A DNA stretch of 37,256 nt from a virus. Of this stretch, positions 1-37,256 are shown in pieces. A program made the translations under genes and the position numbers. The notes under the pieces are model-generated. The model was not told the DNA's origin. It made no database searches and saw only the letters and a list, made by a program, of their open reading frames with translations. The stretch lies in the IMG/VR virus record IMGVR_UViG_3300008018_000002; one strand, written 5' to 3'. Within the stretch, counting starts at the first letter, position 1; every line of letters begins with the position of its first letter.

Positions 1-112
1 ACCGTCGATTTGACGATTACGGGCGCACAGGTCGCCCGACGATCATCACGGGAGAGATGGAAAGGGCGATCCGATCCATCCCAAAAGCCCGCAAAAATAA
101 TTGTGCCGAACG
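1..112. repeat. terminal direct repeat, left copy
   Basis: 1-112 is base-for-base identical to 37145-37256 and the match runs to both window edges. Unit genome length is 37144 bp. Either a circular-assembly overlap or true terminal redundancy. Confidence 0.95.
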
Positions 113-437
113 ATCAAGAGGAGGCACGCCGCAAATGAGTAACGAATCCAAGAAAGGCGCTGATCGGCGTTGCCTCCCTCGCCTTGTTCGGCTTGAGCGG
201 GGCGACGGGCAAGCCGTGAATCCTGCCTACTCATCGGACGGCTACGAAGAGTTTTGCCAGCGCGAAAAAGACAAGGGTCTTCGACGCGACCTGTGGGACA
301 AACTCCCAGAATTGTGGGAGCGAGAGCTTGAGTTCCGAGCCAAGTTTGAGGCGGCACTGGCAAAATTTTCTGAGCCGAACGATCAAGAGGAGGCATCCGC
401 CGACGAGAACCTCAACCGAAGCCAGAAAACTTTATGA
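3..437 (+). CDS. HTH-domain protein, 3' part of an ORF that starts at 37051 and crosses the terminal repeat (176 aa on the circular map)
   Basis: The frame is continuous with 37051..37256 through the repeat. The stop TGA overlaps the next ATG (ATGA at 434). An in-frame internal ATG at 135 is preceded by AAGAGGAGG. Confidence 0.6.
   Translation, partial: RRFDDYGRTGRPTIITGEMERAIRSIPKARKNNCAERSRGGTPQMSNESKKGADRRCLPRLVRLERGDGQAVNPAYSSDGYEEFCQREKDKGLRRDLWDKLPELWERELEFRAKFEAALAKFSEPNDQEEASADENLNRSQKTL
105..126 (+). repeat. 22-bp perfect direct repeat, copy 1 (GCCGAACGATCAAGAGGAGGCA)
   Basis: Identical 22-mer at 374-395. Translated here as AERSRGG. Confidence 0.9.
374..395 (+). repeat. 22-bp perfect direct repeat, copy 2
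   Basis: Identical to 105-126 but read in a different codon phase of the same ORF (EPNDQEEA). Confidence 0.9.
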
Positions 438-1021
438 TACCAGACACCTTTGAAGAAACGCTAGAAGGCGGATTACCATCCGCGCCTTGTTCCCCGTCTT
501 TTCGGCGAGTGTGGGCGATGCCGAACTCAGACACGTTCAGCGTGCCGCCGATGGGCGACATGGTGAAGCGATACCTGCGGACGGCAAAAGTCTCGGTCGA
601 TCCCTTCGCCCGAAACAAACGATGGGCGACCCACACGAACGATCTAAACCCCGAGACAGAAGCGGAACACCACATGGACGCTGAGGAGTTCCTATGGATG
701 CTCCGGGATCAGGGCGTGCGGTGTGATCTCGCTATCCTTGACCCGCCATACTCCCCGCGCCAAATCTCCGAATGCTACAAGGCGGCTGGCCTGTCGGTGG
801 GTATGAAGGAGACGCAAAACGCTGCGCTCTACTCCCGCGTGAAACACGCCTTGTCGCAAATCCTGACCCCGGAAGCAATCGTCCTCAGCTTCGGCTGGAA
901 CAGCTGTGGGATGGGCAAGAAATATGGTATGGAGATCATCGAAATGATGAACGTGTGCCACGGCGGGGCGCACAACGACACGATCTGCATCGCCGAAAAA
1001 CAAGAACCACGACTCCTATGA
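434..1021 (+). CDS. DNA methyltransferase, N6-adenine/N4-cytosine type (DPPY motif)
   Basis: ILDPPYSP catalytic motif. Upstream VDPFARN resembles the AdoMet-binding motif. ATGA coupling to the upstream ORF. Confidence 0.75.
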   Translation: MIPDTFEETLEGGLPSAPCSPSFRRVWAMPNSDTFSVPPMGDMVKRYLRTAKVSVDPFARNKRWATHTNDLNPETEAEHHMDAEEFLWMLRDQGVRCDLAILDPPYSPRQISECYKAAGLSVGMKETQNAALYSRVKHALSQILTPEAIVLSFGWNSCGMGKKYGMEIIEMMNVCHGGAHNDTICIAEKQEPRLL

Positions 1022-1218
1022 AATACAAATACGAAATCAACCCGTGCCGCCGTGATGGCGACAGCTTCGAGAAATGCGACGAAACAGCGACGGACATCGC
1101 CACATGGAGCGTCTATCGACGCGGAGACGATGACCTCGCGGAATGGTTGAGCGACCACGAAACGAAAGTCGCCGCCGAAACCGAGATGGAGCGTCTTCAG
1201 TCTTCGGGGAACGCTTAA
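1018..1218 (+). CDS. hypothetical protein (66 aa)
   Basis: The ATG overlaps the methyltransferase stop (ATGA). The acidic sequence looks protein-like. Confidence 0.5.
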   Translation: MKYKYEINPCRRDGDSFEKCDETATDIATWSVYRRGDDDLAEWLSDHETKVAAETEMERLQSSGNA

Positions 1219-1235
1219 ATCCTCCTACCGCTGCC

Positions 1236-2171
1236 ATGAACTCCACTCCGATAGCTCCCGCGACTCCTAACCAACTTCCCGCTGGTCGGCATATCATCCC
1301 GATCAGCGGGAAAGATTCGTTGGCGACGGCCATCATCCAGACCGCACACCAGCCCGATCTGGAATACGAATACATCTACAACGACACCCGGATGGAGCTG
1401 CCGGAAACCTACGCTTGGATAGACAATGTGGAAACGGTAATGGGGATCACAATCACCCGCGCAGGAAAGAGTCTGGCCGCGATCATCGCGGAACAAAAAA
1501 TACTGCCGTCGCCGATGACGCGATACTGCACCAAATACGCGAAAATCTTCCCGATGCGCGACTACATCGGAAAGGATGCGGCAACGATCTACATCGGAAT
1601 CCGTGCCGACGAAGATCGCCCAGGCGCTCAGGAAACCAAAAACCTCACAGTCCGCTATCCACTCAAGGAAATGGGTGTGAATCTCGCCCTCGTGTATCGC
1701 CTCGTGGAAGGCAAAGACCTAATGCCTCCAGCCTTCTTCTGGCAGCGCATCTATGACGGCGTAGTCGCCGCCCTTGGCTCTGAATCATGGATCATCACCG
1801 AACTACCAAAATGGATCTTCGACCGAACCTTCGCATGGCGCTCACGCCCCAACTGCTACATGTGCTTCTACCAACGCCGCTACGAATGGTGCGGACTGCT
1901 GGAACATCACCCGGATCTCTTCGCCGAGGCGGAAGCCATCGAATCGCGGCACGGCTACTCGGAAAACACCAAGAAACACGCCTTCCTGTGGATCGGGCAG
2001 GACATGCCACTGTCCTACATCCGCGACAACTTCGAGCGGATCGTGCAAACGCGGATCGATGCGGTCGCGAAGCTCCTGCGGAAGCGACTGCAAATGGATC
2101 TCTTCACCGATGCACTCTTCGACGAACTCGAAGCCGCTCAAACGTCCTGCGGCCTATACTGCGGGAAATGA
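1236..2171 (+). CDS. PP-loop ATPase, PAPS-reductase-like (IbrA/DndC-type)
   Basis: N-terminal IPISGKDSLATAI resembles the SGGKDS PP-loop. The C-terminal SCGLYCGK resembles the ECGLH tail of PAPS/APS reductases. This is the first ATG after the upstream stop. Confidence 0.7.
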   Translation: MNSTPIAPATPNQLPAGRHIIPISGKDSLATAIIQTAHQPDLEYEYIYNDTRMELPETYAWIDNVETVMGITITRAGKSLAAIIAEQKILPSPMTRYCTKYAKIFPMRDYIGKDAATIYIGIRADEDRPGAQETKNLTVRYPLKEMGVNLALVYRLVEGKDLMPPAFFWQRIYDGVVAALGSESWIITELPKWIFDRTFAWRSRPNCYMCFYQRRYEWCGLLEHHPDLFAEAEAIESRHGYSENTKKHAFLWIGQDMPLSYIRDNFERIVQTRIDAVAKLLRKRLQMDLFTDALFDELEAAQTSCGLYCGK

Positions 2172-2221
2172 AATTCTCTCCCCTGAACGCCACAAGCTAG
2201 GCATCCCAGCCCTCAGAAAGC

Positions 2222-2250
2222 TTACACGATGCCCTCAAAATCCATATAAT
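2222..2250 (+). promoter_or_regulatory. sigma70-type promoter candidate TTACAC-17 nt-TATAAT
   Basis: TTACAC at 2222-2227 and TATAAT at 2245-2250, in the 147-nt gap upstream of ATG 2319. Confidence 0.55.
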
Positions 2251-2318
2251 CAAACAACCCCGATCAGTCCAGCGGCTGGGATTGCCTACGCTGACTTGTT
2301 CGATCTCTTCAATTCATT

Positions 2319-2912
2319 ATGCCGTATAAAGATAAAGACGCTGCAAAACGCAGAAAGCGCGAATGGTATCTGAAAAACCGGGAACGCCTACTTGCCGAAT
2401 CCGCCGAGAAATACAAAGAGAATGCCGACGAAATCAAAGCCAAGGTGAACGCTCACTACCATGAGAACAGGGATGAAATCCGAAAGCGGCGCGACGAACT
2501 GAATGCCGCCAACCCAGAGCAGAAGAAGCGATGGGATGCGCGATACAGGGAGGCAAATCGTGACAAGATCAATGAATGGGTGAAGGCGAATCGTGAAATC
2601 GTAAATGCGTGGAAAAAACGCCACTACAAGAGGCACGGGGAAAAGGTGAAAGCCTACAACCGATCCAAAAACAACGGATGGGAGAAAGCTCCCCAACGGA
2701 TGCAACTATGGGAAATCCACGATGACGCAATGCTCTTCAACTCCGAACTATCAGACAAGGATCTCGCTAAGGAATTAGGCCGTAGTGTGATGGCCGTAAG
2801 CACTCGCCGCTCTATACTTAAGAGTGAATACGGCGACGACGAAATTTCTTCATCGAACGTCAAGGTGAAGTGCGGCAACGCCTCGCCTCCAACCAAATCA
2901 GACGGCGAGTAG
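2319..2912 (+). CDS. basic repeat protein with C-terminal HTH-like segment
   Basis: Degenerate K/R/E-rich repeats of the form (W/Y)xxN(R/K)(D/E)x(I/L), e.g. WYLKNRERL, YHENRDEI, YREANRDKI, VKANREIV. The C-terminal LSDKDLAKELGRSVMAVSTRRSILK is HTH-like. Confidence 0.6.
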   Translation: MPYKDKDAAKRRKREWYLKNRERLLAESAEKYKENADEIKAKVNAHYHENRDEIRKRRDELNAANPEQKKRWDARYREANRDKINEWVKANREIVNAWKKRHYKRHGEKVKAYNRSKNNGWEKAPQRMQLWEIHDDAMLFNSELSDKDLAKELGRSVMAVSTRRSILKSEYGDDEISSSNVKVKCGNASPPTKSDGE

Positions 2913-2920
2913 CCGTCACT

Positions 2921-2938
2921 TCGACCGCCTTGTTAGGC
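2921..2938 (+). repeat. recurrent intergenic 18-mer TCGACCGCCTTGTTAGGC
   Basis: 17/18 identical to 35945-35962. Both copies end 32-34 nt before the next ATG. Related copies lie at 3845-3865 and 181-194. Confidence 0.8.
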
Positions 2939-2970
2939 TTCTTCCGAACTAATCTCAAACCTCGAATACC

Positions 2971-3546
2971 ATGAAACTACTGCCTGAAAACCCTACGCAA
3001 TTCGACTACCTGCACGCCATCCGCGCCCTAGCTGCGAGGGGAGATATGAGCGCCGTCCCGAAGCTTAAAGAGATATTCAATCTAGCGGACGCTGGGATGT
3101 TCGCCAAAAAGGAACCGCCAGCGCATATTCGCCTCTGCGGATGGCGCGGGATGGCGGGCGGTGACGGTTGTATCCTTCCGCTCGGACACGATGGCGGGCA
3201 TGGATTCAGGGACGGCTCCGGTTATCTGCCTAACGTCATAGGAGATGTGGCGGCGGCTTGCACGCCCAAAAAAGATCAGACGGCTTCCTCGCCGTCACAT
3301 CCTCCGGCTTGTTCGCTTTTCTTCGATTGCGAGATAACGCCACCGCCCGATAACGTGCGGGTTGTGTTCTTCATCATGCCTTATCGTGTGTGGTGGTTCG
3401 GGAAAATGATGTATGGGGAAATCTGTATGCCTACCGCACCGCCCAAGGCAAAAGCCATCTACTGGATTCCCCTTCCGTTGGTTCCAGAGTCACCGGATAC
3501 TGACCGCTGGGAAATCACTGAGTCGATGAAAGTCCGCAAAGCATGA
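2971..3546 (+). CDS. hypothetical protein (191 aa)
   Basis: Long ORF in the co-directional gene array. No motif recognised. Its 3' end overlaps the convergent ORF 3459..3728 by 88 nt. Confidence 0.5.
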   Translation: MKLLPENPTQFDYLHAIRALAARGDMSAVPKLKEIFNLADAGMFAKKEPPAHIRLCGWRGMAGGDGCILPLGHDGGHGFRDGSGYLPNVIGDVAAACTPKKDQTASSPSHPPACSLFFDCEITPPPDNVRVVFFIMPYRVWWFGKMMYGEICMPTAPPKAKAIYWIPLPLVPESPDTDRWEITESMKVRKA

Positions 3547-3728
3547 AACTGATTCGAAATTCTCGACCAATCTTCCTGCCTCTTAGAATAGCTCTTATGA
3601 CTGGAAAGCTCCTTCAAATGATTCCTCAGATAACCAGAATGTTCATCAATGTAGTTGCTCTGGTAGTTGTCGCATTCTCTCAAGAGCGCCTTAACTGCCG
3701 CAAAATCTTCGTATTCAAGGGGTTCCAT
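3459..3728 (-). CDS. hypothetical protein (89 aa), - strand, low-GC island
   Basis: ATG start at 3728, preceded by a conserved upstream element shared with the other - strand gene. The translation looks helical and protein-like. Confidence 0.45.
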   Translation of the reverse strand: MEPLEYEDFAAVKALLRECDNYQSNYIDEHSGYLRNHLKELSSHKSYSKRQEDWSRISNQFHALRTFIDSVISQRSVSGDSGTNGRGIQ

Positions 3729-3735
3729 AATTTAT

Positions 3736-3760
3736 TAGCGAACGTCAGAGTCTATCCACC
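3736..3760 (-). promoter_or_regulatory. conserved upstream element, copy 1 (+ strand TAGCGAACGTCAGAGTCTATCCACC)
   Basis: 21 of 24 aligned positions match 4395-4418. Lies 7 nt upstream of the - strand ATG at 3728. Contains the DnaA-box-like CTATCCACC. Confidence 0.6.
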
Positions 3761-3815
3761 CGCTCCCACTCAGCGCACTCCGCAGCACGAAAAAGGGGGT
3801 GACAAGTGAGCGGGT

Positions 3816-4382
3816 TCATTGGACGGCGGGGAGCGGGTTGGATACGACGCCTTGTTCGCTTCTTCTTTTTTCTTGGTAAGCCATGCCAGTCTTGGAGAGC
3901 CACCAACCTTTCGGGTTTGGAAATCCATCTCGCTGGGCGCCCCACTTCGGAGCGCCAGCCATCTTTGGAGTCATGCGCTCTAACCCGAAAAGAGCACTTT
4001 CAACATCTACGCGATTCCTCCCAGACTTCTCTTCAAGCTCCTCAAGGGTATATCGCTCAGGGTAATAGCAATACATTATATCCATCAGGGAATGCTGTAA
4101 TTCAGAAAACCTATCGTCGTGATTGGGATTCACTATTAGATCGGATAAACGTTGCCTTCTCGCTACACGATACGAGCACACCACAGCGATCAGCAATAAA
4201 TTCGCAATCGTGGAAACCCAGAGTGTGTATGCTAGGATTTTGTTGGCTGTGGATAACCCTGACCACAGTAGGAACAATGGAAGCACCAGAGTCCCGAATC
4301 CTAGAATCACTTTGGCAAATGTCTTTTGTAATGCCTCAACTTGGCTGGATAGCCATTCCTCTAATGATTCGGATAAAAGCAT
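3816..4382 (-). CDS. membrane protein, 2-3 predicted TM helices plus soluble C-terminal domain
   Basis: Hydrophobic stretches VILGFGTLVLPLFLLWSGL and ILAYTLWVSTIANLLLIAVVC. ATG at 4382 (the ORF track starts at TTG 4388). The opposite-strand ORF 3806..4438 looks non-coding. Confidence 0.55.
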   Translation of the reverse strand: MLLSESLEEWLSSQVEALQKTFAKVILGFGTLVLPLFLLWSGLSTANKILAYTLWVSTIANLLLIAVVCSYRVARRQRLSDLIVNPNHDDRFSELQHSLMDIMYCYYPERYTLEELEEKSGRNRVDVESALFGLERMTPKMAGAPKWGAQRDGFPNPKGWWLSKTGMAYQEKRRSEQGVVSNPLPAVQ

Positions 4383-4394
4383 CTTCAAATTTTC

Positions 4395-4418
4395 TAGCGA
4401 ACGTAGAGCCTATTCACG
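4395..4418 (-). promoter_or_regulatory. conserved upstream element, copy 2 (+ strand TAGCGAACGTAGAGCCTATTCACG)
   Basis: Matches 3736-3760. Lies 12 nt upstream of the - strand ATG at 4382. Confidence 0.6.
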
Positions 4419-4469
4419 GCGGGGAGGACTCCGCCTAAATCAGAGAGCTGGCCGCCGTTGAATACGGCG

Positions 4470-4478
4470 TCTACGTTC
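4470..4478 (+). promoter_or_regulatory. partial third copy TCTACGTTC, inverted relative to 4399-4407
   Basis: Reverse complement of GAACGTAGA at 4399-4407. Lies 32 nt upstream of ATG 4511, in the same orientation to its gene as the two long copies. Confidence 0.4.
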
Positions 4479-4510
4479 TCCACTCTTAATTCAACCCCAA
4501 GACTACGAAT

Positions 4511-4744
4511 ATGGAAACTGAAACACCTGAAACTGATGCTAAACACCACGAGATTGCACAACTTGATTGTAGCGATCTATACCGATACAGACACATGCAG
4601 CTACACGCCCGCAAGCTGGAACGCGATCTAAATAAATGCCAAGCAGCTCTCGTGAAGCTCGATCAAATCTACCGCGCCGGCCTATGCAATGAGCCTGTGC
4701 GCCCCGAGTGGATCGCAAAATGGATTCCCATGGAGAACAGCTAA
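4511..4744 (+). CDS. hypothetical protein (77 aa)
   Basis: ORF with an ATG start following the divergent intergenic region. Confidence 0.45.
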   Translation: METETPETDAKHHEIAQLDCSDLYRYRHMQLHARKLERDLNKCQAALVKLDQIYRAGLCNEPVRPEWIAKWIPMENS

Positions 4745-4769
4745 TTATACAGAACCAGAACCAACAACC

Positions 4770-5189
4770 ATGAGTCAAACAAAGAACTTACCCGAAATCC
4801 TCCAGAAAGTCCCGTTCGCAACGCTGATGACCGAGATCAACCGCCGAACCAGCCCATCGAAAGGAATGCACCTGATAAACGACACAGTAGCCGACACGTT
4901 CCGGCTCGACCCATACGAGCTACGTTTCGCAAGGCCGCACACACGATCAGTAGCGCCAGCCAGGTATGCAGCGATGATACTCATGAGGCGGCTAATGGAT
5001 GCGCGATGGGACGAAATCGCGACCTACTATGACGTAACCAAAGGCACAGCCGCTAAGTCGCTGGTCTATTTTGAGACCCATCGCAACCGGAGCGAGGAAT
5101 ACAGGGCGAGGGCTGAATGGGCTGAGGCACAACTACTCCAGTTAAATAATCGCAACTGCTTAAGGCAAATTGCACAGGAGCAAGCATAG
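4770..5189 (+). CDS. DnaA domain IV-like helix-turn-helix protein
   Basis: RSVAPARYAAMILMRRLMDARWDEIATYYDVTKGTAAKSLVYFE parallels the DnaA C-terminal DNA-binding domain pattern RSVAxPRQxAMxLxxxLTxxSLxxIGxxFGxRDHTTVxHA. Confidence 0.55.
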   Translation: MSQTKNLPEILQKVPFATLMTEINRRTSPSKGMHLINDTVADTFRLDPYELRFARPHTRSVAPARYAAMILMRRLMDARWDEIATYYDVTKGTAAKSLVYFETHRNRSEEYRARAEWAEAQLLQLNNRNCLRQIAQEQA

Positions 5190-5202
5190 GATAACAATTG
5201 TA

Positions 5203-5499
5203 ATGAAAGGTAAAATCATGTCAAGAAAGAACGATGTAGCCCTTATGGGGCAAGGGATGGGTAAAACGACGAGATCCTTTAAACAAGTGATGAAACGCAA
5301 GAATGATAGGCTTAGGCAAGTTGAGGACAGGTTAAACAAGGCATGCCTCAAGCTTGATGAGGCTACTGACGCGCTAAATCGAATCTTGAAGACCGAAGAT
5401 GATTGCAATCAATGCGATCCTTGGTCGGCGCTGGAATCCATTAGCGCAATCGCTCACAATGCACTAGCAGGCTTGATATTGGACGGGAAAGAGGGGTAG
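5203..5499 (+). CDS. hypothetical protein (98 aa; alternative start 5218)
   Basis: Low-GC ORF with a coiled-coil-like sequence. AAAGG lies 7 nt before ATG 5218, so the start is ambiguous. Confidence 0.4.
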   Translation: MKGKIMSRKNDVALMGQGMGKTTRSFKQVMKRKNDRLRQVEDRLNKACLKLDEATDALNRILKTEDDCNQCDPWSALESISAIAHNALAGLILDGKEG

Positions 5500-5661
5500 G
5501 ATCAGTGAGAACGATGAGAAAGGAACGAAATGCAGCGCGTAACAGCATGATAATCAACGACTTAGAAAAAGGTAACCTCTTAAACGACCGTTTAGAAGAG
5601 CGGAGTGCCGACTCCGGGGAAAACCTATGATTTTTGAAATCAAACAAAGTAACAAACCAAA

Positions 5662-6279
5662 ATGAACGAAACCAAACAGAAAATTGAGATGATGCGAACG
5701 GCGGATTTGATCCCCTATGCCCGCAACAGCAGGACTCACAGCGAAATGCAAGTGGCGCAGATCGCCGGAAGTATCCGAGAGTTTGGATGGACGAATCCTG
5801 TCCTGATCGACGCAGAGAACGGCATCATTGCCGGACATGGCCGGGTGATGGCAGCGCAGCTACTCGGCGCGGACAAGGTGCCGTGCATCCGGATCGAACA
5901 TCTGACTGAGACGCAGAAGCGGGCTTACATCATCGCGGACAACAAGCTGGCCCTCAACTCGGGATGGGATGAGGAGATGCTAGGACTGGAGCTGGCGGAC
6001 TTACGGGAAATGGACTTTGATCTTGGCTTGCTCGGATTCAGCGAGGAAGAGCTAGGCTCATTCGACATCGAAGAATCCGATATGCCGGATCTCTCCGACG
6101 CTGACAAGCAGCCCTTCCAGCAGATGACATTTACCGTGCATGATGAGCAGGCCGAGGATGTGGAGTCGGCAATCCGCAAGGCAAAGCAGATGGGACACGG
6201 AGAATCAGCCGTAAACGAAAACAGCAACGGCAACGCTCTCGCATTCATCTGCCAATCCTTCAACCGGGTGAATCCATGA
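5662..6279 (+). CDS. ParB-like N-terminal (nuclease/sulfiredoxin-like) domain protein
   Basis: LIPYARNSRTHSEMQVAQIAGSIREFGWTNPVLID...IIAGHGRVMAAQLLG is the typical ParB N-terminal domain signature. No partition HTH or ParA partner was seen. Confidence 0.8.
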   Translation: MNETKQKIEMMRTADLIPYARNSRTHSEMQVAQIAGSIREFGWTNPVLIDAENGIIAGHGRVMAAQLLGADKVPCIRIEHLTETQKRAYIIADNKLALNSGWDEEMLGLELADLREMDFDLGLLGFSEEELGSFDIEESDMPDLSDADKQPFQQMTFTVHDEQAEDVESAIRKAKQMGHGESAVNENSNGNALAFICQSFNRVNP

Positions 6280-7043
6280 TAAACACAAAATCAAATCCCG
6301 ATTTGCCGGATTGCCGGGTTGCTCCGATCAAGCTGGAAGATGCTCGCAAGATCACGGTTGCGAAGCACTACATGGGAACATGGCCGCAAGGCGCGAAGGT
6401 CGCCTTCGGTCTATTCAAGAAATCCAAATGCGTCGGTGTAATGGTGGCTGGCTATGCCCCAACAACAGAGAGGAAAGTTGCAAAGTGGTGCCGAAAAATC
6501 GAGAGAAGGCAATATATCGAACTGCAGCGGACATGGATCAGCGACGAGATGGGGCACAACACGGAATCATGGATGATGGCTCGCGTTATGCGAATCTTCA
6601 AGCAATCCGGGATGTGGCTCGTTATGACCCACAGCGGCGGGTGCAAGGATGATGTGGGATTCATCTTTCAGGCTTCCGGCTGGCTCTATTTCGGATGCGA
6701 TCCGTGCAATGACTTTTACGAAACCGAGCGGGGAGAATACAAGAATCTAGTAAGCGCAATGAGATTCGGTCGCGTCCCCAAGGAGATCTTAAAGCAGGGA
6801 CAGCAAGCTATCGGCGAACATCTTTTCGGAGCGGGCAAGATAGTTCATGCAAGACGACATCTCTACATCTACCCGATCAACCGAGGGCTTCGTCAGCGCC
6901 TCAAAAAACTCACCTTGCCATTTCCAAAGAATCCCGCATTATTTCGCCGTGATCAAGCATGGTCAATTAACGGAGGTGTGGACACGGGGTCTGAACTCTC
7001 ACCGGTTTCTGGGTCACTCCCGGACACCTCCGCCAAGCCATGA
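6276..7043 (+). CDS. Mom-like acyltransferase-fold protein, paralogue 1 (putative DNA base modification)
   Basis: PIKLEDARKITVAKHYMG...FGLF...CVGVM, ELQRTW...NTESWMMARVMRIF, IFQASGWLYFG and HLYIYPI...LPFPK match the family pattern I recall for phage Mu Mom relatives. ATGA coupling on both sides. Confidence 0.55.
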   Translation: MINTKSNPDLPDCRVAPIKLEDARKITVAKHYMGTWPQGAKVAFGLFKKSKCVGVMVAGYAPTTERKVAKWCRKIERRQYIELQRTWISDEMGHNTESWMMARVMRIFKQSGMWLVMTHSGGCKDDVGFIFQASGWLYFGCDPCNDFYETERGEYKNLVSAMRFGRVPKEILKQGQQAIGEHLFGAGKIVHARRHLYIYPINRGLRQRLKKLTLPFPKNPALFRRDQAWSINGGVDTGSELSPVSGSLPDTSAKP

Positions 7044-7771
7044 GCGCTAAGGACATAATCGTCCGTCCGATCAAGGCTGCGGATGCAAACAGGATCGTCA
7101 AATCCTGCCATTACTCTGGCAAGGTCGTTCCGAACTCGCAGCTCCATTTCGGAGTTTTCCTCGAAGGCAAATGCGGAGGCGCGATGCAGTTCGGGCCATC
7201 AATGCGCAAAGACCTGATCCGTCCGCTTGTAGCTGGCACCAAATGGAACGGATTCATCGAGTTGAATCGCATGGCGTTTGCTGACTGGTTGCCGCGCAAC
7301 TCCGAGAGCCGCGCCATTGCTGTTGCTATGCGGCTAATCCGCAAAACGTATCCTCACATCGATTGGATCGTCAGCTTTGCGGACGGAACGCAATGCGGAG
7401 ACGGGACAATCTACAGGGCTAGCGGATTCATTCTAACGGGGATCAAAAAGAATACGGAGCTAGTCGTGAACCCAAGGACTGGCGAGACAATGGCAACCAT
7501 GGCAGCATACCACAAAGGATTTGCATCGGAGATTTCAACATGGGAGAGGCTTTCCGGCCACATGTTCCGATACCTCTACTTCCTCAATCCGGGAGCACGA
7601 TCCCGATTGACAGTTCCGGTAATCCCGTTTAGTGAAATCCAACGCCGGGGAGCAGGTATGTATCTCGGCAAACCAAAACGCGCCGGAAGTGACACTTCGG
7701 ACACGCCAGCTTTCCAAGCTGGAGAGGGCGGCTCACTACCGACCCCGGCGCTCCATTCTCCCGAGATATGA
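7040..7771 (+). CDS. Mom-like acyltransferase-fold protein, paralogue 2
   Basis: PIKAADANRIVKSCHYSG...FGVF...CGGAM, ELNRMAF...NSESRAIAVAMRLI, VSFADG...GTIYRASGFILTG and FRYLYFL...IPFSE are colinear with paralogue 1. ATGA coupling to terS. Confidence 0.55.
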   Translation: MSAKDIIVRPIKAADANRIVKSCHYSGKVVPNSQLHFGVFLEGKCGGAMQFGPSMRKDLIRPLVAGTKWNGFIELNRMAFADWLPRNSESRAIAVAMRLIRKTYPHIDWIVSFADGTQCGDGTIYRASGFILTGIKKNTELVVNPRTGETMATMAAYHKGFASEISTWERLSGHMFRYLYFLNPGARSRLTVPVIPFSEIQRRGAGMYLGKPKRAGSDTSDTPAFQAGEGGSLPTPALHSPEI

Positions 7772-8421
7772 AACCGCCCGTAATATCCCAAGACCAGCTT
7801 GATAAGATTCATCAAGCCAATGCCGCGAACCTCATCAAGAAGGTAAAGAGCGGTAAGACGCTGACGAGCGAGGAACGCCGCATACTGGAAGGCATGGCCG
7901 GGCATGATACGGAGTCGGTCACAACTTCCCGACTCGCTGAAATCTTCGGCGTAAACCGTAAGAGCATCGCGCAATGGCGCAAGGAGGGTAAGAATGTGCC
8001 GGACAAGGTAGGCGGCAAGGAACCGCTGGCCGAGTGGCGGCGATGGTTTGAAGATCACCCGGATGCAGGACATTTCGATGGGAAGCCGAGCAAGAGCCGT
8101 GAGGAGCTTCTTGCCGTCAAGGTAGCGGTGGAGATCGACCTGCTTGAAATCAGGCGAGACAAGGAACGCGGGAAGCTGATTTCCCGTGATGAAGTCAATG
8201 AAAGGGACGTTAGTATTGCGATGGCGCTAAAGGCAATGCTGAGACGATATGAGCGCGAAATACCGACATTATGCCTTGGACTACCACTTACCCAGTCAAT
8301 GCCTATCGTGAAGACCAAGGCGCGAGAGCTACAAGACAGGCTATCAGACATGACTGGCGAGTTCTGGGGGAATAACCCTGAATCCAATGAGCGAACCGTT
8401 TTGCCGCACAATCAAATCTGA
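7768..8421 (+). CDS. terS: terminase small subunit (Nu1-like HTH)
   Basis: LAEIFGVNRKSIAQWRKEGKNVP is an HTH, followed by a coiled-coil-like segment. Lies directly upstream of, and overlapping, terL. Confidence 0.7.
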   Translation: MKPPVISQDQLDKIHQANAANLIKKVKSGKTLTSEERRILEGMAGHDTESVTTSRLAEIFGVNRKSIAQWRKEGKNVPDKVGGKEPLAEWRRWFEDHPDAGHFDGKPSKSREELLAVKVAVEIDLLEIRRDKERGKLISRDEVNERDVSIAMALKAMLRRYEREIPTLCLGLPLTQSMPIVKTKARELQDRLSDMTGEFWGNNPESNERTVLPHNQI

Positions 8422-10135
8422 CTCCGACCTGCACCCGGCAGACTGGTGCGCGGAGTATGTCCACGTTGAGAACAGCGAGCGCGGGAGTAAGTTTGACCCG
8501 TCACAAACCCGATGGTGGAGGAAACCGATGGGATGTTATGCGGACTACGAGACGCGAAACATGGTCTGCATCATGCCGACCGGAGCGGGCAAGTCCACGT
8601 TCTTTGAGGCGATCAACTGCTGGATCGTTTCTGAGGCTCCCGGCTCCGTGCTGTATGCGTCCATCACCGATCCGAACGCGGAGCTTTGGGGAGAGACACG
8701 ATTCCTAAAGGCCGCGAAGAAATGCACGCCGCTGGATCACCTATGGCCAAAGAACCAGCGCAATGCGGTTCGGAAGGATGCGATCATATGGGCGCACATG
8801 TTCATGGTTCTAGGCGGTGCGAACATGTCCAACTTCCAGGAAGTCTCGATCACCTACGGGCAGGGGGACGAGGCATGGGCATGGAAGCCGGGCATGGTTC
8901 GGGAGTGGAATGCCCGATCCCACAACCGCGAAAATCGCAAATTCACGCTCGCATCGCAAGCCGGCATGATCGCCACCGAGGACGGCACGGGTGAGACTTC
9001 AGAGCTTCATGCCGAGCATGACAAATGCCGGAAATGGGATTTCGCTTGGAAGTGCGAATGTGGGCATGTCCAACCGTTCCGCTTTGAGCAGTTGAAATAT
9101 CCAGACAAAGGCACCGATCAGGAAAGGGCGGATGCGGTTGTGCGAGTCTGCGAAGGATGCGGGAAGGAACACGCCGACACTCACGAAAACAGAAGGGCGC
9201 TGCATGACAGCTACGAGGAAAACGACGGGTATCTCTGTGTGAACCCGGACGGGCAGCGCGGATACGAGGGCTTCCACCTCGACGCGGGCGGCATCTGGTG
9301 GATTCCGTGGGCGGAGGACGTATTGCAAAAGATCGCGGCGGACAAAGCGGCGGCGATGGGAGACTTTACCCAGCTTAGGCAATGGACGCAGAAGAGGCGG
9401 GCGGTCGGCTGGTCTGACAACCTGCAAGCCTCGGAAGTCACCCTAAAACCATCCGGCTACACACGCGCCGATTTCAGCGAGGGGCAAAAGATTGATGGCG
9501 AGGCAGTCCGGTTCTGCACGATTGACGCGGGCGGAGATCATTTCTGGCTAAGAATCCGCGCCTGGTGCCAGGGTGGAGAATCCAAGGGTTTGTTTTTCGG
9601 ATACATCAACAGCGAGGCGGAGTGTGATGAAATCCGGGAGCGTTACGGGGTGTTACCAAAGCATACTTTTCTGGATGTTGGATTCGACCAAGAGCGCATG
9701 GCAGGGCTTATCGTGCAATACGGCTGGCAGGGCATGAAAGGGGATGGCAATAAAAAATCCGGGTGGGATTGGCCGATCAAGAGTGACCCGAACAAGAAAG
9801 AAATCCGGCTCTACTCTAAACGCTGGTATGCACTCAGCAAGGAAAAGAAGCAAGCTACCTGCTGGCACATCGCCACCGAGCCGATTCAATACATCCTACA
9901 GCGGCTCATGTCCGGAGAGGGTGCTGAATGGCTTGTCGAGGACGATGCGCCGCCATCATACGCCAAGCACCTAAACAACGAGCGGTTGGAAACAGCCAAG
10001 GATTCGCGAGGGCGGGAGGTCAAGAAGTGGACGCGCCGGGGAGCGCAGCACGGCAGGGATACGGAGGTATATCAAGTCGCCGCCGCCCTAATGTTCCGAA
10101 TTTTCACACCACCAAAAACAACCGAAGATGAGTAA
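8387..10135 (+). CDS. terL: terminase large subunit, GpA (lambda) type
   Basis: Walker A IMPTGAGKST. Cys4 cluster CECGH...CEGCGKEH, as in GpA-family terminases. 582 aa, followed by lambda-like head gene order. Confidence 0.9.
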   Translation: MSEPFCRTIKSDSDLHPADWCAEYVHVENSERGSKFDPSQTRWWRKPMGCYADYETRNMVCIMPTGAGKSTFFEAINCWIVSEAPGSVLYASITDPNAELWGETRFLKAAKKCTPLDHLWPKNQRNAVRKDAIIWAHMFMVLGGANMSNFQEVSITYGQGDEAWAWKPGMVREWNARSHNRENRKFTLASQAGMIATEDGTGETSELHAEHDKCRKWDFAWKCECGHVQPFRFEQLKYPDKGTDQERADAVVRVCEGCGKEHADTHENRRALHDSYEENDGYLCVNPDGQRGYEGFHLDAGGIWWIPWAEDVLQKIAADKAAAMGDFTQLRQWTQKRRAVGWSDNLQASEVTLKPSGYTRADFSEGQKIDGEAVRFCTIDAGGDHFWLRIRAWCQGGESKGLFFGYINSEAECDEIRERYGVLPKHTFLDVGFDQERMAGLIVQYGWQGMKGDGNKKSGWDWPIKSDPNKKEIRLYSKRWYALSKEKKQATCWHIATEPIQYILQRLMSGEGAEWLVEDDAPPSYAKHLNNERLETAKDSRGREVKKWTRRGAQHGRDTEVYQVAAALMFRIFTPPKTTEDE

Positions 10136-37054: not shown

Positions 37055-37256
37055 CTCCCACCGAATACAAATCCGCGTGCGAAGCAACTGGTCGCACGCT
37101 CCAGGAAATCGCCGACATTCTCGGGGTCGCGCTCTCTACCCTCTACCGTCGATTTGACGATTACGGGCGCACAGGTCGCCCGACGATCATCACGGGAGAG
37201 ATGGAAAGGGCGATCCGATCCATCCCAAAAGCCCGCAAAAATAATTGTGCCGAACG
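37051..37256 (+). CDS. HTH-domain protein, 5' part (continues at 3..437 across the repeat)
   Basis: ATGA overlap with the upstream stop. GRTLQEIADILGVALSTLYRRF is an HTH. The ORF is open to the window end. Confidence 0.6.
   Translation, partial: MTPTEYKSACEATGRTLQEIADILGVALSTLYRRFDDYGRTGRPTIITGEMERAIRSIPKARKNNCAE
37145..37256. repeat. terminal direct repeat, right copy
   Basis: Identical to 1-112. Confidence 0.95.

Follow-up and report, generated by a model that had tools for sequence, protein, structure and literature searches.

A ParB-like gene paired with two Mom-type DNA-modification genes ahead of the terminase genes of a circular phage genome

Introduction

Does the cluster of putative DNA-modification genes in front of the terminase genes of IMG/VR virus record IMGVR_UViG_3300008018_000002 encode one pathway, or several? 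The stretch of DNA analysed here, 37,256 nt in full and referred to as the window, carries in its first 8 kb five plus-strand open reading frames (ORFs) with signatures of nucleic-acid modification: a small methyltransferase-like protein with a DPPY motif (motif IV), a PP-loop protein of the PAPS-reductase fold, a stand-alone ParB/sulfiredoxin (Srx)-fold protein, and two homologues of the phage Mu modification enzyme Mom, here called MomI and MomJ (Table 1). An earlier note had located all five, correctly, and had read them as a single block that gives the virion DNA one complex hypermodification. A survey of about 190 related loci points elsewhere. The explanation that we favour, with moderate confidence, is that three independent DNA-modification or counter-defence modules lie between the replication genes and the late operon, and that the core of them is a pair of Mom enzymes assisted by ParB.

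Table 1. Location of the features discussed. Positions refer to the window, except in the last four rows, which refer to example loci with related ParB-like genes (L121-L197 set).
Feature	Position	Strand	Evidence or remark
Small DPPY methyltransferase-like protein	434..1021	+	phrog_11619 'DNA methyltransferase' 1e-34
66-aa ORF between methyltransferase-like and SspD-like genes	1018..1218	+	start overlaps methyltransferase stop (ATGA); called on identical contigs
Orphan SspD-family PP-loop (PAPS-reductase fold) protein	1236..2171	+	PF01507 7e-9, 36.3 bits
190-aa ORF with hydrophobic, probably membrane-spanning segments	3816-4388	-	sole sizeable minus-strand ORF in the region
DnaA-C-like helix-turn-helix protein	4689..5189	+	PF08299 5e-6, under curated cut-off
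Stand-alone ParB/Srx-fold NTP-binding protein, 205 aa	5662..6279	+	phrog_620 5e-56
Mom paralogue I (MomI), 255 aa	6276..7043	+	PF25680 7e-36, 124.2 bits
Mom paralogue J (MomJ), 243 aa	7040..7771	+	PF25680 8.5e-52, 176.2 bits
Small terminase subunit, terS	7768..8421	+	phrog_57 1.3e-11; start overlaps MomJ stop (ATGA)
Large terminase subunit (terL), lambda GpA type	8387..10135	+	PF05876 7.5e-16, PF20454 3.8e-9
Example ParB locus L150	3498-4926
Example ParB locus L160	3498-5065
Example ParB locus L145	3498-4880
Example ParB locus L184	3495-5187

Results and Discussion

The ParB-Mom pairing

The ParB-like gene, the two mom genes and terS follow each other without spacing. The ATGA overlaps at 6276, 7040 and 7768 are real, and the last three of the five ORFs are thereby chained into terS. 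The proposal that a modification block stands directly before the terminase genes is thus correct for ParB-MomI-MomJ; it does not extend to the methyltransferase-like and PP-loop genes, which lie upstream of a 3.5 kb gap that separates the PP-loop gene from ParB and holds at least six unrelated ORFs, one of them on the minus strand.

Linkage was surveyed in 58 non-redundant loci with relatives of MomJ or MomI, a sample that reaches MomJ relatives down to about 50% identity and includes weaker Moms found via ParB. In 55 of the 58 a ParB gene lies immediately upstream of the mom gene; the aligned ends are 0-3 nt apart in most, the median being 3 nt. Among the remaining three, one (L070) has ParB immediately downstream and two are contigs too short to tell; ParB adjoins Mom in 56 of 56 informative loci. 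The commonest architecture is ParB-MomJ (40 loci), followed by ParB-MomI-MomJ (11), ParB-MomJ-MomI (2) and ParB-MomI (2), and these counts indicate that ParB was ancestrally partnered by MomJ and that MomI was added later. The pairing holds while ParB identity drops to about 29-35%, and the terminases behind it are of GpA type, Terminase_6 type and Terminase_3, often with no terS between; of 10 loci tested, 8 have terL as the large ORF that comes next. The pair also occurs in ssrA genomic islands of Dehalococcoides, which are not phages, where it was noted in 2011 without explanation (PMC3146451). In contrast, the Mu-type Moms (Mu, PAN70 and pAEv1818) stand alone, lack a ParB gene and are longer by about 30 residues at the N-terminus; two subclasses of Mom are therefore plausible.

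Three side observations concern these cassettes. In the Dehalococcoides islands a 76-bp tRNA-like sequence was reported inside the mom homologue (PMC3146451), which is curious as Mom uses charged tRNA. In one close relative (L008/L103, 2283-2624) a second, partial copy of ParB (114 residues, 87% identical) follows directly after MomJ, which suggests recombination within the cassette. The large terminase gene behind one ParB-Mom pair (L054, 11437-14982) holds an intein with a LAGLIDADG homing endonuclease.

The ParB-like protein and its other partners

The ParB/sulfiredoxin-like assignment made in the earlier note is supported by phrog_620 and by Foldseek matches to Noc and ParB-CDP (cytidine diphosphate) structures (5e-7), the Pfam ParB_N match being just under threshold (24.1 vs 26.3 bits). 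The protein also matches the N-terminal part of phrog_498 (ParB-methyltransferase; 2e-54) and of PADLOC MTase_II (1e-40), and ParB box II, GHGR, is invariant in the homologue alignment. Its N-domain is conserved, and the last 80 or so residues are specific to the partner. No helix-turn-helix (HTH) Pfam match was found in the 205 residues, and the C-terminal half of the structural model is of low confidence.

An IMG/VR search with this protein returned at least 599 matches, and the best 80 were examined, giving 77 loci. A stand-alone ParB gene with a mom gene behind it was seen in 40 of them. Another 23 have this N-domain, with an identity over residues 7-120 that reaches 84%, inside a longer ORF of 380-510 amino acids, and all ten of the long ORFs tested proved to be fusions to an N6/N4 DNA methyltransferase (PF01555). 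The other 14 have a stand-alone ParB before another gene; partners identified among those tested are a separate N6/N4 methyltransferase, a Tet/JBP dioxygenase, a C5 cytosine methylase, an ABC-type ATPase, and a protein combining histidine-phosphatase and cytidylyltransferase domains. The N-domain subfamily remains 70-84% identical over about 115 residues across these differing partners; in L150, for example, an N-domain 83% identical to that of the window precedes a Tet_JBP gene. Similarity to the window ParB beyond residue ~120-150, on the other hand, is kept only where the next gene is of MomJ type, which indicates that the C-terminal ~80 residues co-vary with the partner.

As a separate observation, the ABC-type ATPase and the histidine-phosphatase plus cytidylyltransferase protein are not obvious DNA modifiers, and may mark novel modification chemistry.

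Phage ParBs were reported in 2026 to activate a cognate Tet/JBP thymine dioxygenase on double-stranded DNA (dsDNA), in a pair-specific manner that requires both the nucleotide-binding domain and the C-terminal domain of ParB (PMC13229309). Because the anatomy of the window ParB matches that of these activating ParBs, we infer, from linkage, fusion and analogy, that it may be an adaptor or activator of the Mom enzymes.

An unlikely alternative, to our mind, is that ParB serves packaging, as a terminase accessory or a nuclease, and that the Moms are morons which have landed in a hot-spot before terS without any interaction between the two. ParB-like genes before the terminase are indeed common in phages, as seen in PHROG families and in the 'ParB-Tls locus' cited in PMC4738411; nicking and NTPase (nucleoside triphosphatase) activities of ParB domains have been reported (PMC5512222), some loci clearly show MomI inserted between ParB and MomJ, and Mu Mom is self-sufficient. 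What a hot-spot leaves unaccounted for is that most of the 55 pairs are spaced by 0-3 nt, whichever of three terminase families follows, and that the C-terminal region of ParB tracks the identity of the adjoining enzyme. The covalent fusion of the same N-domain to methyltransferases, its position before a Tet/JBP enzyme, a class with demonstrated ParB dependence (PMC13229309), and the occurrence of the ParB-Mom pair in genomic islands that have no terminase (PMC3146451) point the same way, towards ParB as a partner of Mom.

The two Mom paralogues

Both Mom-like calls were confirmed. The two proteins score far over the cut-off of the Pfam Mom family (27.1 bits for PF25680), and both match phrog_1384 and the solved structure of Mu Mom, 8bv8 (1e-11 for MomI and 2.4e-28 for MomJ). 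With a mutual identity of only 26%, they fall into distinct subfamilies whose motifs after the catalytic Ser differ; identity to Mu Mom is 37% for MomJ and about 24-26% for MomI. MomJ has more than 8000 relatives in the databases. MomI represents a divergent subfamily that only roughly one in four related cassettes contains. The presence of several Mom paralogues in one phage is known already (PMC7824862).

According to the 2026 study of Mu Mom (PMC13219725), the enzyme takes glycine from Gly-tRNA(Gly) and attaches it to N6 of adenine in dsDNA, and the product rearranges to N6-carbamoylmethyl-adenine. The study names R111 and S124 as essential, states that Mu Mom works alone in vitro with no other phage enzyme needed, and describes two randomly chosen metagenomic homologues as active. 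The two residues, numbered as in that paper, correspond to R101 (in ELNR) and S114 (in NSES) in GenBank numbering. Both are retained in the window, as ELNR and NSES in MomJ and as ELQR and NTES in MomI, and the Ser column is invariant in an alignment of 9 diverse Moms. Across the HTH-like insertion needed for activity (residues ~175-209 in Mu), MomJ aligns through with short gaps and MomI aligns at low confidence; the N-terminal extension of the Mu type is absent from both. As the essential Arg and Ser are kept, our best guess is that both paralogues make the same modification as Mu, an N6-carbamoylmethyl-type adenine. Differing sequence preferences or aminoacyl donors of MomI and MomJ are possible.

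The essential Arg and Ser, an overall length that includes the HTH-like insertion region, and the reported activity of the two random homologues (PMC13219725) make it quite unlikely that one or both enzymes use another aminoacyl-tRNA, acyl donor or base and install an adduct, or adducts, other than carbamoylmethyl-adenine. Room for such a departure is left by the distance of the paralogues from each other and from Mu Mom, by their distinct subfamilies and post-Ser motifs, by the missing N-terminal extension, and by the remark in the same source that the fold of a GNAT enzyme does not reveal its substrate specificity. A more general part of the earlier note, that the phage modifies adenine in its own DNA late in infection as an anti-restriction measure, is very probably right, as judged from the retained residues and the chaining into terS.

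The SspD-like PP-loop protein

The PAPS-reductase-like call was upheld, and the protein can be placed more narrowly. Its PF01507 score is over the cut-off of 22.5 bits, the PP-loop sequence SGKDS is invariant in homologues, and an AlphaFold2 model (predicted local distance difference test, pLDDT, 85.5) has APS/PAPS reductases as its top structural matches, with 2goy the best; a sequence search of the PDB gave nothing significant. In PADLOC it matches SspD at 3.6e-52 over 240 of 277 profile positions and BrxP at 2e-6 only, with no match to DndC. Five cysteines (Cys98/207/210/305/309) are common to the phage protein and the SspD proteins of pVS127 and Devosia. Plasmid homologues, 32-37% identical over about 85% of the length, sit in sspA-sspB(DUF4007)-sspC-sspD-DUF262 clusters, that is, in operons of a cysteine desulfurase, a DUF4007 protein, a large ATPase, a PAPS-reductase gene and a DUF262 gene, which are Ssp phosphorothioation systems.

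The phage proteins form a clade of their own, in which SGKDS replaces the canonical SGGKDS (a deletion of one residue) and some 30 residues (~165-195) that cellular SspD lacks are inserted; both features are kept across 37 homologues. Among the selected neighbouring ORFs that were searched with profiles, neither the window nor 7 related phage loci yielded an ssp partner gene. As sspA, sspB and sspC were not identified, the gene is filed as an SspD homologue and not as an Ssp system. In relatives it is typically a lone accessory gene after DnaB, and cultured phages have almost no counterpart. Phage PAPS reductases have been listed among anti-defence candidates (PMC13551039, which also cites one as helping a phage to evade Dnd), and it is plausible, if speculative, that the protein co-opts or disturbs phosphorothioation-based immunity of the host.

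The earlier note had paired the PP-loop protein with ParB as an IbrA/IbrB-like couple. The likeness is that proteins of the PAPS-reductase fold and the ParB fold are found in one genome. Unlike IbrA and IbrB, the two genes stand 3.5 kb apart and do not co-occur in relatives, the PP-loop protein has no DUF3440 match and belongs to the SspD family, and the conserved neighbour of ParB is Mom; the IbrA reading was rejected on these grounds.

The methyltransferase-like protein

The methyltransferase call has evidence on both sides. It is favoured by the PHROG match and by the DPPY at residues 103-106, which together with a DPFA motif is invariant in 15 homologues; it is weakened by the lack of a Pfam match and by an unusual motif I, considered below. 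A family profile compared with the PDB gave only weak RsmD-like and DpnA matches, around DPPY, and a PDB search with the sequence itself gave nothing significant. This is the weakest of the five assignments and rests on motifs plus the PHROG match. On identical contigs gene callers start the gene at 518 (518-1021), which is probably the true start. The 66-aa ORF that separates it from the SspD-like gene has no PHROG or other family match.

Co-occurrence of the gene groups

Whether the three gene groups belong together was examined in their relatives. Searched with all proteins of the window, none of the 58 Mom loci holds a relative of the methyltransferase-like or the PP-loop gene. Neither ParB nor Mom was found in the 7 loci with PP-loop relatives or the 18 with methyltransferase relatives, and the latter have no PAPS-reductase gene nearby. 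Because of this lack of co-occurrence, the five genes do not behave as a pathway, and a single hypermodification made by all five enzymes is not supported. A scheme in which the methyltransferase, the PP-loop enzyme and ParB feed or tailor the Mom adduct would fit five families that are all plausible nucleic-acid modifiers, encoded on one strand within 7.3 kb; it is set against the absence of the combination from every related locus, the unrelated ORFs in between, and the ability of Mu Mom to do without any other phage enzyme (PMC13219725). Support might be sought in the cultured Psychrobacter phage vB_PmaS_Y8A (OQ059336), which likewise has a PAPS reductase, ParB and two Moms, but there the genes are scattered too and the PAPS reductase is only 23% identical to that of the window. 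We consider such a joint pathway extremely unlikely.

The same phage, the closest cultured example, shows that the gene combination is not unique, since a PAPS reductase and a second Mom accompany its ParB-Mom-terS series. Its ParB and Mom are 54% and 55% identical to those of the window and are followed by terS, and its PAPS reductase comes after the replication genes. The second Mom differs in lying in the early region and not in tandem, the PAPS reductase is of another subfamily with SGGKDS, the terminase is a Terminase_3, and there is no small DPPY methyltransferase. In its annotation the Mom between ParB and terS (L098, 7125-7778) is a 'hypothetical protein'; it is a homologue 55% identical to MomJ, and Y8A therefore has two Moms of which only one is annotated.

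A smaller grouping, the methyltransferase-like and SspD-like proteins as a two-gene module acting on the same DNA, was likewise rejected on co-occurrence and is very unlikely. The two are neighbours in the window with only the 66-aa ORF between them, and in L076 an SspD-like gene overlaps a Dam-type methyltransferase gene and is followed by a C5 methylase, with a Dam-type gene 2.5 kb away in L097; these neighbouring methyltransferases are nevertheless of unrelated families. The 18 methyltransferase relatives occur without an SspD-like gene, and three loci (L095, L096 and L075) have no methyltransferase beside theirs.

Proposed explanation

Family memberships, conserved residues, gene linkage and the absence of co-occurrence are the observations from which we infer a chemistry, a dependence on ParB and a timing for the three modules. 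ParB, MomI and MomJ would form the core module, translationally coupled to terS and terL. The Moms would act after replication on dsDNA, transferring an aminoacyl group from charged tRNA to N6 of adenine, and the adduct would rearrange to N6-carbamoylmethyl-adenine, blocking many restriction enzymes. ParB would be an NTP-binding adaptor, the N-domain giving a nucleotide switch or DNA engagement, and the variable C-terminal part recognising the cognate enzyme and loading or activating Mom on dsDNA. The position at the head of the late operon and the coupling to terS may keep a toxic activity in check until shortly before packaging, an outcome that Mu secures with dedicated regulators (Com, C and Dam). 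Having two Mom paralogues probably broadens the range of sequences modified or, less probably, allows differing aminoacyl-tRNAs to be used. The SspD-like PP-loop protein, predicted to be of Fe-S type, would be a separate accessory that probably interferes with or co-opts host Ssp phosphorothioation, and the small DPPY methyltransferase-like protein would be the third stand-alone gene.

A bolder version can be held only tentatively: that a large Mom subclass depends on an NTP-binding ParB clamp which, through its C-terminal domain, loads or activates Mom on dsDNA as packaging begins and is a general module of phage modification enzymes, shared with methyltransferases, Tet/JBP dioxygenases, C5 methylases and others, and that the two paralogues install two different N6-aminoacyl-derived adducts.

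Several points weigh against the proposed explanation. Mu Mom needs no partner in vitro (PMC13219725), and the dependence of Mom on ParB is argued by analogy. Since ParB-like genes precede the terminase in many phages without Mom, adjacency could reflect a shared insertion hot-spot. The correlation between ParB and Mom divergence is modest (Pearson 0.45, uncorrected for phylogeny), and the C-terminal half of ParB is predicted at a pLDDT of 35-60 only. Donor and product chemistry is not readable from sequence, as the authors of the Mom structure themselves say (PMC13219725). As for the accessory genes, the one-residue deletion in the PP-loop and the absence of ssp partners make an SspD-like activity uncertain, and motif I of the methyltransferase-like protein is DPFA(R/K)N, without the canonical Gly-x-Gly loop for S-adenosylmethionine.

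Comparison with known systems

The nearest counterpart of the core is Mu Mom (8bv8; PMC13219725), with which the window enzymes share PF25680, the catalytic Arg and Ser, a location among late genes beside packaging, and a presumed anti-restriction role. Mu Mom differs in being stand-alone, in its control by Com, C and Dam, and in its N-terminal extension of about 30 residues, whereas the window has two divergent paralogues without the extension, preceded by a ParB gene and chained into terS. Compared with the ParB176-dependent thymine dioxygenase 5mYOX176 (PMC13229309), the partner of ParB in the window is a GNAT-fold, putatively tRNA-dependent adenine modifier and not an iron/2-oxoglutarate (Fe/2OG) dioxygenase. 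The ParB-N6/N4 methyltransferase fusions (phrog_498, PADLOC MTase_II) have the same pre-terminase position, and their N-terminal ~120 residues are of the same ParB subfamily (up to 84% identity); there ParB is covalently joined to the enzyme, while in the window it is separate, has its own C-terminal region, and the enzyme is Mom. The PP-loop protein resembles SspD of SspABCD-SspE in its PAPS-reductase fold, PP-loop, all five cysteines and 32-37% identity, and is unlike those systems in being an orphan, with no sspA, sspB, sspC or sspE identified, with SGKDS and with the ~30-residue insertion.

Each of the families is already known by itself, and the idea that ParB-terminase loci modify DNA during packaging has been traced to Iyer et al. 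2013 (as cited in PMC4738411). The near-obligate ParB-Mom pairing in a large clade appears to be undescribed (Iyer et al. 2009, 2013 lie outside this comparison), as do the partner-specific C-terminal region of ParB and the tandem of two divergent Moms that are, by their retained residues, apparently active. The 2026 Mom paper (PMC13219725) makes no mention of ParB.

Genome organization and neighbouring genes

The first 112 nt of the window (1-112) recur as an exact copy at 37145-37256, so that the assembly closes on itself and represents a complete circular phage genome of 37,144 bp. Almost all genes are on the plus strand. From terS the order is GpA-type terL, portal, structural genes and lysis genes, followed by RecT and YqaJ recombination genes, an HTH_36 initiator, a DnaC-like loader and DnaB, and then, across the origin of the record, the region studied here; on the closed genome the replication genes (32.5-35.5 kb) directly precede it.

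Two neighbouring genes lie in the interval before ParB. Members of the DnaA-C-like HTH protein family also stand a few genes ahead of ParB-Mom in related phages (L001, 7123-7404; L004, 4660-4953), and the protein is a possible regulator of the late operon. The 190-aa minus-strand ORF has no match in Pfam, PHROG, NCBIfam or PADLOC and looks like a moron, for example a superinfection-exclusion gene. A tRNA scan of the window detected none, and scans for promoters and terminators gave the same counts as shuffled sequence. A search of a phage collection for near-identical DNA gave no match, and a scan of a genome collection gave a single one, to a metagenome bin labelled Caulobacter, too weak for host assignment.

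Significance

The several hundred related loci link two recent findings, the tRNA-dependent chemistry of a lone Mom and the activation of one class of phage DNA-modifying enzyme by ParB: in this clade a cognate ParB accompanies most Mom relatives, and its C-terminal part varies with the enzyme beside it. For experiments, phage vB_PmaS_Y8A is a possible model. Separately, the orphan SspD homologue is a candidate counter-defence gene against immunity based on phosphorothioation. If Mom does depend on ParB, then ParB would be a general adaptor for post-replicative modification of phage DNA, the long-noted presence of ParB genes before terminase genes would be explained, and there would be a rule for reconstituting modification enzymes of metagenomic origin that are otherwise silent: express each together with the ParB encoded next to it.

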